Virus record (IMG/VR): IMGVR_UViG_2534681738_000015 | Direction: 5' to 3' (one strand) | Source of the DNA: a virus | Taxonomy: Duplodnaviria; Heunggongvirae; Uroviricota; Caudoviricetes | Length of the DNA: 9,353 nt | Shown: one piece after another, positions 1 through 3,000 of the stretch | How the letters are laid out: every line of letters begins with the position of its first letter | How positions within the stretch are numbered: position 1 is the first letter of the stretch | Made by a program: the position numbers

Positions 1-3000
1 TTACCTAGCAGTCAATGGTCACAATCTTCGATTGCCATTTATATATGTAAAAAGCGGTTTCAGGAACGCTGAATATATCGGCATAAGAAACTGGCTTGCT
101 GGCATTCGCATCAAAGGAGAGTGATATGACCACTATAACCGATAAGAAACAGTATCCCAGCGAGCAATTTCTTAATGAGCTGATCACCAACATGGAGTTT
201 GCTGCAAGGGCACCAGTTGAAGTCGTGAGAGCGATGGCAGCAGAGCTACAGAAGCGGCGCGAAGCTGATAGTGCAGAACCAGTTGCTTATATTTTCAAAC
301 ATCCGGCCGGGAAATTATTCTGGGCTTTAACGGATGAAAGCAATAAAGAGCAAGCGGACGTTATTCCTGTTTATGCTGCCGCGCCTGCGTCGGTTGTGCC
401 GGATAATGCATCAGAGCCTCTTGCTTATGCTTACAAAGAGCTTACGCCTGAGATTATGCGCAACCATTTAGCTGTATTCGAGCGATATGGAATAGCCCCA
501 AACGATAGCACTACCACAATTCAGGCACTGCGAATCGCGCTGGATGGTATAGAGCGGAGCGACGCCATGCTTCAGGGTAAAGGAGGGGGATATGGCTATT
601 GCCGCAAGTTACACCATGCATCTCTACTGTGATTGTCGCCAGTGTACAAATGGTAAATATCAAACGCCAGATTTCGGTGAGTATATCGGTACGTCATGGG
701 CTGGCTGTGCAAAAGAGGCGCGCAAGGATGGCTGGCGAATAAACAAAGACAAAACGCGTGCTTTTGCGCCAGGGCATAAAATTTTGAGGAGCAACAAAGG
801 AGAGTGATGTGCCTACATTATTCAGAAAAGAATATCCGCGAAAAAGTAGAGCGACAGAATTTTTGTTTCTCATTCTGTTTATCGTGTTGATGACACCGAT
901 ATCCCCGCTAATTTTTGTCTGGGCAATCGGGAAAATAATTGAGCTAGTTATTGAGTTGTATAACGACGTGGTATGGGCGTCGTTCAACACACTGCACAAT
1001 AAAATTAACCCATATAAGGAAAACTGAAATGGCAACTTTGCAGGAATTAATCGACCTGACGCCAGAACAGGAAAAAGCGTGGAATCGTCTTGTGAAGGCT
1101 GTAAAGGATTTCAGGGCAGCCGGAGGAAAGTTTTATAGTGTCCTAGACACGCTGAGCGCATACAACGGCGAGCACGTTGCCAGCATTGATAACGATAAGG
1201 GCTACCACACTGCAAGCGTCTATATGCCTAGCATTGATGCGCCTGGGTTAACCAGTTGGGCTGATGATTGGCACGGCATCACGCTGAAAGATGGCGTTGA
1301 AGTGGATAAGGACTAACACATGACAACGTTCACCGACAAAGAAATGATTAAAGAAATCAAAGAGCGAATCGGCAGCCTGGACGTGCGAGATAATATTGAG
1401 CGCCGTGCTTATGAAATTGCGTTGACTGCATTGACCACTGAACCATTCGCCACTATCGACACAGTGGGAATTGAGCTCGTTAAATATGGTTGTAACACGT
1501 TTATTTGTCCCGACAATTCGATGGAGCCGGGAAATGTACCACTATATATCGGCCTGCCACGAATTGATCCAGCAAGCCAGACTGCCAAGCTGTCATTCCA
1601 GGAATGGTTGTCAGAACAAAAAGAAAAAATAGACGTTGATTGCGGATGTGTAAGCATCGAAACGCTTACGCACTGGATGAAATCCGCTTATGAGGCTGGT
1701 AACTCTCCGGTAACTCCGGATAGTTGGATAAGCTGTAGTGATCGAATGCCTGAAAAGGGCCAGAACGTGCTTATTTCGGTGAATTTCGATAGCTCTCTGG
1801 TTGAACCGCTAATATGCTCCGCACGCTATACCGGAAGCACCTTTCGGCGCGGAGATGCAACGATTAAGCCGGGTAATGGTATTGAGCAAGCAACTCACTG
1901 GATGCCGCTACCAGAACCGCCGCAGGAGGTTAACCGTGGCTAACCTGCAACTTGGTCAAAGGTGAATAAGAATCCTCGCACTCGCGGGGATTTCTTTTAT
2001 CTGAACTCGCTACGGCGAGCTTGAGAGGTTAAAACGATGAAAAATAATGTAATGAAAAATGGAACTATCGACAGCCAGGCTCTGTTGAAAATGGTGAATG
2101 AAGCGCGGAGACTGTGCGGTGAAAAAGAAGTACGCAACAACGACTTCATTGCACGCATCAAAGATGAACTTGATGGGGGGGGGTTACGAAATTTTCGTAA
2201 CCCCCATGGATAAGAAAAAAGGCGGTGCGGATCAGGTTGTTATTGTGATGACCTATAAACAAGCGCTTCGGGTTGCCGCTCGTGAATCTAAATCCGTCCG
2301 TCGTTCGCTGGTCGATCAACTGGAGTCAATGCAACAGCAACTGCAACAAAAAATCACCTCGAAACATTCGACTAACGGCCTTGAGGAATTCCGTAAAGCA
2401 CGGGCGCTGAAAATGACCGTCGATACAATGAAAGACCTTTTCGGCTTCCTCCCCAACCTTGCCCCTGAAGCTAAACAAGTCGTTGCCGCCAGCCTGGTTA
2501 ATCCCGTTGTAGGCGCTAACGTAATCCCGCTACCGATGATTAATGAACATTACTATTCGGCGTCAGAAGTTGGAGCAAAACTCAAAATATCCGCTAACAA
2601 GGTTGGTCGCATTGCCAATACCTACATGCTCAAAACCGAACAATACGGGAAATGGTTCATCGACAAATCCCCGTATTCGGATAAGCAGGTAGAAAGCTTC
2701 CGATACAATAATCGGGGAGTACGGAAGATTGAAGAAATCCTGGACGCGGAGAACAACGCAGAATTCGGAACCTGATATCCTCCACTCTCCGACGCCGCCA
2801 GAATGACGGCGCGGTGGTTAAGCATGAGGCGAAATTTCTGCCGGGCGGTATTTTGTTGAGAGATGAGATACGTCAACTTCTCTTTCCGCTTTTTCAAGGC
2901 TCCATGCCGTCTGGAGACGAATCCATGAAGACGGAGTTCCCCCCAGGACAGCAGCGAGACGAACAGCCATTTCAGGAGATATTGTCGCATTACCTGAAAC

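Follow-up and report, generated by a model that had tools for sequence, protein, structure and literature searches.

Transcriptional slippage and programmed frameshifting at homopolymers are known, with examples in the A9 run of Thermus dnaX, in insertion sequence (IS) elements and in the poly-A rescue of endosymbionts. In Yersinia pestis, a poly-G tract makes ureD a pseudogene, in which one extra G silences the urease and from which spontaneous revertants occur. The locus considered here lies in a stretch of 9,353 nucleotides (nt) from a Caudoviricetes virus (IMG/VR record IMGVR_UViG_2534681738_000015), hereafter called the window. At positions 2037-2775 of the plus strand the window carries the frameshifted allele of an antirepressor-like accessory gene (PHROG 1726), whose reading frame is broken at a run of nine G residues (G9, 2175-2183). 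The break is probably a real +1 frameshift, heritable and located in a poly-G tract that is both young and hypermutable, which switches off a single accessory gene of a Shiga toxin (Stx2a) prophage; this explanation is given a probability of roughly 80%.

The window represents the early-left operon, at its int-proximal end, of an Stx2a prophage integrated at argW. At positions 1-8000 its sequence shares 100% identity with VT2phi_272, with Stx2a_F765 and, if the IS insertion in PA2 is disregarded, with that phage too. The integration site, the tRNA-Arg(CCT) gene argW, is placed at 8102-8176 and marks the prophage end. The 901 bp around the split gene are 100% identical in 28 complete Escherichia coli genomes, O157:H7, O111:H8 and others among them, and in 25 phage records. 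The prophage corresponds to PST2 in the typing of Yin et al. (PMC4587872) and, in that of Miyata et al. (PMC9997748), to the delta subtype of O157:H7 clade 8.

Part of this picture is already known. The frameshift is flagged by the Prokaryotic Genome Annotation Pipeline (PGAP), which labels the identical sequence as 'hypothetical protein, frameshifted' and the version with eight G as an intact coding sequence (CDS) of 245 amino acids (aa), WP_047618678.1, and homopolymer slippage is an established mechanism. The PA2 record splits the gene into two CDSs. Among the papers that could be searched, there was none on this tract or its G6-G12 polymorphism, and nothing specific on homopolymer phase variation of prophage antirepressors or on this gene in Stx2a phages.

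The split gene and its G tract

The start codon at 2037 is preceded, 8 nt upstream, by the Shine-Dalgarno-like motif GAGAGG (2023-2028, plus strand), read from the sequence and in agreement with the good ribosome-binding site reported in the earlier note. The frame opened by this ATG closes at a TAA codon (2211-2213), as the same note had placed it, and yields a truncated product of 58 aa (2037-2213, plus strand) with 49 native residues followed by LRNFRNPHG. The G9 run (GGGGGGGGG) is the longest homopolymer anywhere in the window, in which only 0.013-0.015 G runs of at least nine are expected by chance. The +1 frame is free of stops from 2098 to the stop codon at 2773-2775, and its part 3' of the tract aligns with the homologues; the 225-aa open reading frame (ORF) of the mechanical listing begins 5' of the tract. 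When G9 is replaced in silico by G8, one continuous ORF results, as had been anticipated, with a length of 245 aa instead of the proposed 246 or so; replacement by G11 gives 246 aa. The predicted products fall into two groups according to tract length, the full-length protein for G8 and G11 and peptides of 53-59 aa for G6, G7, G9, G10 and G12; for G9, G10 and G12 alone the range is 54-59 aa.

The comparison with homologues indicates that both parts belong to one gene. The repaired protein matches the PHROG 1726 profile with an E-value of 8.9e-95, residues 6-241 being aligned to profile positions 13-264 of 264; the name of this profile, 'anti-repressor', is an annotation of the family and not a tested function. 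The 58-aa stump groups in a small family of its own (phrog_12199). A search of 5.8 billion proteins returned 1566 homologues, of which the full-length ones have 241-251 aa and are always encoded by a single ORF. They come from Enterobacterales, including Escherichia, Salmonella, Klebsiella, Serratia, Citrobacter, Cronobacter, Pantoea and others. The gene order is also kept in related prophages, where a DUF551 (EaA) gene is followed by this gene and then by another Ant-like gene. The homologues and the PHROG 1726 profile thus span the two parts, and the idea of a single gene split by a +1 frameshift in the G run, put forward in the earlier note, is borne out.

The site of the tract is highly conserved in the family, and its uninterrupted form is not. 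Among 31 aligned homologues the consensus at the site is D-E-L-[D/E]-G-E-[x]-Y, in which G47 is invariant and E48 is conserved in at least 90%. The homologues encode the Gly-Glu-Gly segment via GGGGAGGG or GAGGGGGAGGGT. The nearest intact alleles read GAT GGG GAG GGT, that is GGGGAGGG, which is taken as the ancestral form, and the commonest allele family reads GAG GGG GAG GGT. An uninterrupted G tract is limited to one allele lineage; the retention of a repeat by orthologues and lineages, which in evolved contingency loci is a sign of selection for mutability, is thus not seen. The most widespread alleles, with GAG GGG GAG GGT (L038-L043; P0025 and P0009 families), contain the proto-tract G5-A-G3, which is a single transition away from an in-frame G9; a similar hot spot could therefore arise again in many prophages. 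Another locus (L011, IMGVR_UViG_641736225_000049, 1700-1747) has in place of the tract GGGGGTTGG, which likewise has 9 nt and is out of frame, and which could be a different mutation or an old draft-assembly artefact.

The length of the tract varies widely in public assemblies. Exact-sequence look-up of the predicted products placed the out-of-frame G9 on 563 contigs, drawn from NCBI draft assemblies and from Logan assemblies of sequencing runs, and the in-frame G8 on 155 (P0131). The other lengths are less frequent: G10 (out of frame) on 74 contigs, G11 (in frame) on 25, G12 (out of frame) on 11, and G7 and G6 (both out of frame) on one contig each. Direct inspection of the DNA confirmed G8, G9, G10, G11 and G12. 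Out-of-frame lengths account for about 78% of the contigs, which indicates that the in-frame states are not enriched, within the limits set by the clonal bias of these counts.

Variation is also found between almost identical phages. In the LC7278xx series, eleven Stx2a phages, each about 48 kb long, are distinguished by no more than 32 isolated single-nucleotide polymorphisms (SNPs), mostly singletons, and carry G8 in four cases, G9 in five and G10 in two. Tract length does not follow the few SNPs that are informative. The whole-phage MAFFT alignment is noisy because of IS elements and indels, and only the isolated SNPs and the short indels in well-aligned stretches were used; in these parts all other runs of at least seven nt (one G8, one A8, one C7, seven A7 and twelve T7) are constant. 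As a rough estimate, the per-site rate of change of the tract is thousands of times the per-base substitution rate. No paper on the LC7278xx / JNE phage series was found in the literature search.

The same tract lengths occur in different genetic surroundings. At least four flanking haplotypes are distinguished around the tract: the first carries only G9, the second G8, G11 and G12, the third G8, G9 and G10, and the fourth, which has a different upstream module, G12. G8, G9 and G12 are each found on at least two of them, which points to repeated length changes, unless the tract was carried from one background to another by recombination. In the O157:H7 sublineage SG8_32, CEC01302 has G8, whereas CEC01311, F765, H52_982342 and ECP17-46 have G9. 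Frameshifted tract products also exist in the closely related V5I/D46E background (P0126, P0146). The slippage-prone behaviour expected in the earlier note is therefore observed as a G6-G12 allele series, and two features of contingency loci are present, namely a repeat within an ORF that shifts the frame and a recurrent length polymorphism among close isolates.

The favoured explanation comprises three steps. The homologues encode D-E-L-[DE]-G-E-G with either of the two interrupted sequences. From such a site, the allele series suggests, an A>G transition that changed Glu48 to Gly (E48G) would have fused two short G runs into an in-frame G8. Strand slippage would then have produced G9, the commonest allele and that of the window, as well as G10, G11, G12, G7 and G6. 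The alleles of this last step are observed; slippage is proposed from the established knowledge of homopolymer replication, and the order of the events from the allele series.

The G9 allele would at best give an N-terminally truncated product of 189 or 200 aa, by reinitiation or by internal initiation. The ATG at 2173-2175, made of A2173, T2174 and the tract's first G, opens a 200-aa ORF in the +1 frame (2173-2775, plus strand), annotated 'Ant2' in strain TW14588 (P0135) and possibly expressed. A second ATG (2206-2208) sits 3 nt 5' of the stop of the 58-aa ORF (ATGGATAA) and opens a C-terminal ORF of 189 aa (2206-2775, plus strand; P0129, at least 1000 contigs), whose product is labelled 'antirepressor' in the PA2 record. 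Its closeness to that stop makes termination-reinitiation possible, which would give the 189-aa product. An obvious Shine-Dalgarno sequence is absent at both ATG 2173 and ATG 2206. In the AlphaFold2 model of the repaired protein, helix 34-44 and strand 51-55 flank the site of the frameshift, which lies within the predicted N-terminal domain, and consequently the G9 allele cannot make the native protein.

Since the length changes are recurrent and include in-frame states, the tract is mechanistically like a contingency repeat and is able, in principle, to flip the gene on and off. An evolved contingency switch is nevertheless less likely than a mutational hot spot that arose incidentally in a gene either dispensable or in decay, because the tract is recent, lineage-specific and born by substitution at a conserved residue. 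That a nearly invariant residue was substituted suggests that constraint was already relaxed when the tract arose.

Several observations weigh against this explanation. Outside the tract, all records agree in the gene with 100% identity; there is no second inactivating mutation, so that decay is not proven, and the persistence of the in-frame G8 and G11 is compatible with a gene that is still useful. The contig counts are dominated by outbreak clones and do not represent independent events. The tract lengths come from assembled sequences, and some of the closed genomes are long-read assemblies, in which a few tract calls could be wrong.

Alternative explanations

The alternative that survives best is an adaptive phase-variable (contingency) switch, in which reversible slippage toggles an antirepressor-like regulator in subpopulations of lysogens and diversifies induction, immunity or Stx production. 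It is supported by the in-frame members of the G6-G12 series, by the recurrence of identical lengths on several haplotypes, by the presence of both G8 and G9 within SG8_32, by the tract being the only varying homopolymer of at least seven nt among the 11 near-identical phages, and by the otherwise perfect preservation of the ORF. On the other hand, the family as a whole lacks the tract, which was created by one substitution at a nearly invariant residue, about 78% of the contigs are out of frame with no enrichment of in-frame lengths, and the protein has no known phenotype. Contingency loci switch reversibly within clonal populations at about 1e-5 to 1e-2 per generation, and their on and off states differ in phenotype. 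The G9 of PA2 is the same in the phage record, in the genome of the host strain and in the genome of the WG5::PA2 lysogen, which indicates that any switching is not fast. Mismatch-repair-proficient E. coli is not known to rely on contingency loci of the simple-repeat kind, which also speaks against an adaptive switch. Taken together, an adaptive switch is considered unlikely. The fuller proposal, a newly emerged and working E. coli phase switch of an Stx2a-prophage antirepressor-like regulator, through which subpopulations would differ in spontaneous induction, Shiga-toxin output or superinfection, is slightly less probable again.

A bypass of the frameshift during expression, by slippage of the RNA polymerase on G9/C9 or by ribosomal +1/-2 frameshifting, would make the G9 allele leaky instead of null. 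Homopolymer runs of at least nine nt can cause transcriptional slippage in bacteria, which is well documented for A/T runs, and the ORF 3' of the tract is intact. On the other hand, G/C runs slip far less than A/T runs in transcription, and no stimulatory signal was identified. In programmed frameshifting the slippery sequence is conserved and both frames are required, whereas the orthologues of the split gene are single-frame and lack the tract, and there is thus no sign of selection for recoding. A leaky G9 allele is very improbable.

A homopolymer sequencing or assembly error, with a true sequence of G8 and an intact gene, had been offered in the earlier note as a further possibility. Homopolymers are error-prone on the 454, PacBio and Oxford Nanopore (ONT) platforms, and some of the G8 or G10 records stem from long-read assemblies. 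Nevertheless, G9 is found in 53 complete records from various laboratories and platforms. PA2 has G9 in its three independent records, and the PA2 and PA8 sequences were explicitly corrected for homopolymers with Illumina reads (PMC4587872). The exact 58-aa product is present on 563 contigs, and the constancy of another G8 run and of an A8 run in the same phages, in which the tract is the sole varying homopolymer of at least seven nt, argues against a generic homopolymer error. A sequencing error is thus effectively refuted as the origin of G9.

The existence of two genuinely separate genes, one of 58 aa and one 'antirepressor' gene of 189 to 225 aa, as annotated in PA2 and F765, would fit the two CDSs of PA2, the collection of 58-aa fragments in phrog_12199 and the overlap of ATG 2206 with the upstream stop, but it is refuted by the homologue alignment: outside the poly-G lineage every homologue is a single ORF of 241-251 aa. 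In addition, the break sits within a predicted domain, and the 58-aa product ends in 9 residues that are read out of frame.

The encoded protein and its genomic surroundings

A search of the repaired 245-aa protein against Pfam-A (hmmscan, E-values up to 1) gave only four weak and unrelated hits, with no match to the ANT/KilAC (PF03374), Rha Phage_pRha (PF09669), AntA or ORF6N models, and the NCBIfam scan gave no hit. The PADLOC scan returned nothing for the protein, and the profile search of PDB sequences gave no match. The Rha and ANT family labels were consequently rejected; of the 'Rha-like' designation used in the earlier note, only the broad two-domain architecture of the Ant/KilAC/Rha type is shared.

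The AlphaFold2 model, built from 31 homologues with a mean predicted local distance difference test (pLDDT) score of 76, shows three parts: an N-terminal alpha/beta domain (residues 10-80, approximately), long helices (residues 85-158) and a C-terminal domain with a helix-turn-helix (HTH) and a beta-hairpin (residues 175-243). Foldseek comparison with the PDB gave no global hit and only local matches (probability 0.9-1.0) to MerR-type winged-helix DNA-binding domains, for example those of RacA, BldC and NmlR. Comparison with predicted viral structures gave full-length matches (E-values 8e-10 to 1e-5) annotated as antirepressor, KilAC or KilA. On the basis of these models, the protein is placed in the broad class of modular Ant/KilAC-type phage regulators, with a putative activity of this kind. 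The Ant protein of phi24B was described as P22-Ant-like by Fogg et al. (PMC3064807), and its link to the split gene is not established.

Upstream of the gene, a terminator-like hairpin followed by a T-rich tail (1970-1993, plus strand) was found by consensus scan between the DUF551 gene and the split gene. The number of terminator and promoter sites around the gene is no higher than in shuffled sequence, and by-eye inspection 5' of 2037 revealed no convincing match to the LexA box CTGT-N8-ACAG.

Downstream of the gene lies a HigA-like HTH antitoxin gene (2818-3123, minus strand), preceded on its own strand by a 93-aa ORF (3212-3493) with no Pfam hit, which could encode the cognate toxin. This antitoxin gene contains a second G run that varies. 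The run is G7 at 3104-3110, or C7 on the minus strand, within codons 5-7 or thereabouts, and at one related locus (L030) it has one extra G, the HigA-like gene being called there with 90 aa and not 101. For a ParD-like antitoxin ORF within 3538-3978 (minus strand), no partner is obvious.

A second Ant-like gene, distinct from the split one, is found further downstream. Matches at the Rfam gathering score were obtained for isrK (3885-3958) and for the C4 antisense RNA (3984-4067), both on the plus strand, and directly 3' of them lies an ORF6N-domain 'antirepressor' gene (4120-4797, plus strand). The segment 3885-4797 presumably represents a C4-RNA-controlled antirepressor module, as it resembles the immI type of P1/P7.

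The remaining observations concern the differences from PA2 and the end of the window. The MT-A70 methyltransferase gene (5281-5907) is intact in the window and is broken in PA2 (L003, 10724-12032) by the IS insertion, which is annotated as mobile-element / IS3-family transposase genes. Beyond argW, a second integrase ORF (8302-9321) has an incomplete catalytic domain, and its 3' end adjoins a 72-bp match in reverse orientation (9282-9353) to the edge of the same IS insertion of PA2.

Significance and comparison with known systems

The split gene belongs to an Stx2a prophage type found in O157:H7 clade 8 sublineages and in further serotypes of E. coli that make Shiga toxin (STEC). Differences in the early region of such phages have been linked to the level of toxin production (PMC4645166, PMC9997748). 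If the protein modulates repression or induction, the on/off tract, which differs among isolates that are the same in all other respects, would be a possible hidden source of strain-to-strain variation in toxin output. In practical terms, the tract recurrently yields calls of 'frameshifted pseudogene' versus 'intact CDS' and spurious allele differences in gene-by-gene typing. From a conceptual point of view, the case illustrates how a hypermutable repeat can originate from a single transition in E. coli, where loci of this kind are usually regarded as scarce; were the functioning switch true, it would be a contingency locus born by a single point mutation.

The locus shares features with several described systems. 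Like the phage regulators of the Ant/KilAC type (P22 Ant, KilAC proteins, Rha and the Bro-N/KilA-N/ORF6N fusions), the repaired protein has two predicted modules, an N-terminal alpha/beta domain and a C-terminal winged helix, connected by a helical linker; it is a member of PHROG 1726, and its gene lies in the early-left accessory region beside other Ant-like genes. Its kinship with these regulators is structural, since it matches none of the PF03374, PF09669, AntA and ORF6N models. As in the homopolymer recoding sites of Thermus dnaX and others, a 9-nt homopolymer marks the point where two overlapping frames of a single gene meet, but the run is composed of G instead of A or T and is not conserved in the orthologues.

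The simple sequence repeat (SSR) contingency loci with intragenic poly-G/C tracts in Campylobacter jejuni, Neisseria (pilC) and Haemophilus, which work by slipped-strand mispairing, resemble the tract in that the length of an intragenic G homopolymer sets the frame, several length alleles coexist in near-identical isolates, and in-frame and out-of-frame states interconvert. They differ in that the tract of the split gene is a recent accident of one lineage (from G4AG3 to G8) and not a family feature, that the host is a mismatch-repair-proficient E. coli, and that the in-frame lengths are not enriched. With ureD of Y. pestis, the split gene has in common that a short G run with one residue too many silences an enterobacterial gene that is intact in all else, and that slippage can revert the change. 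ureD lies on the chromosome, has a metabolic role and contains a shorter run, whereas the gene described here is a prophage accessory gene with a G6-G12 series of alleles.

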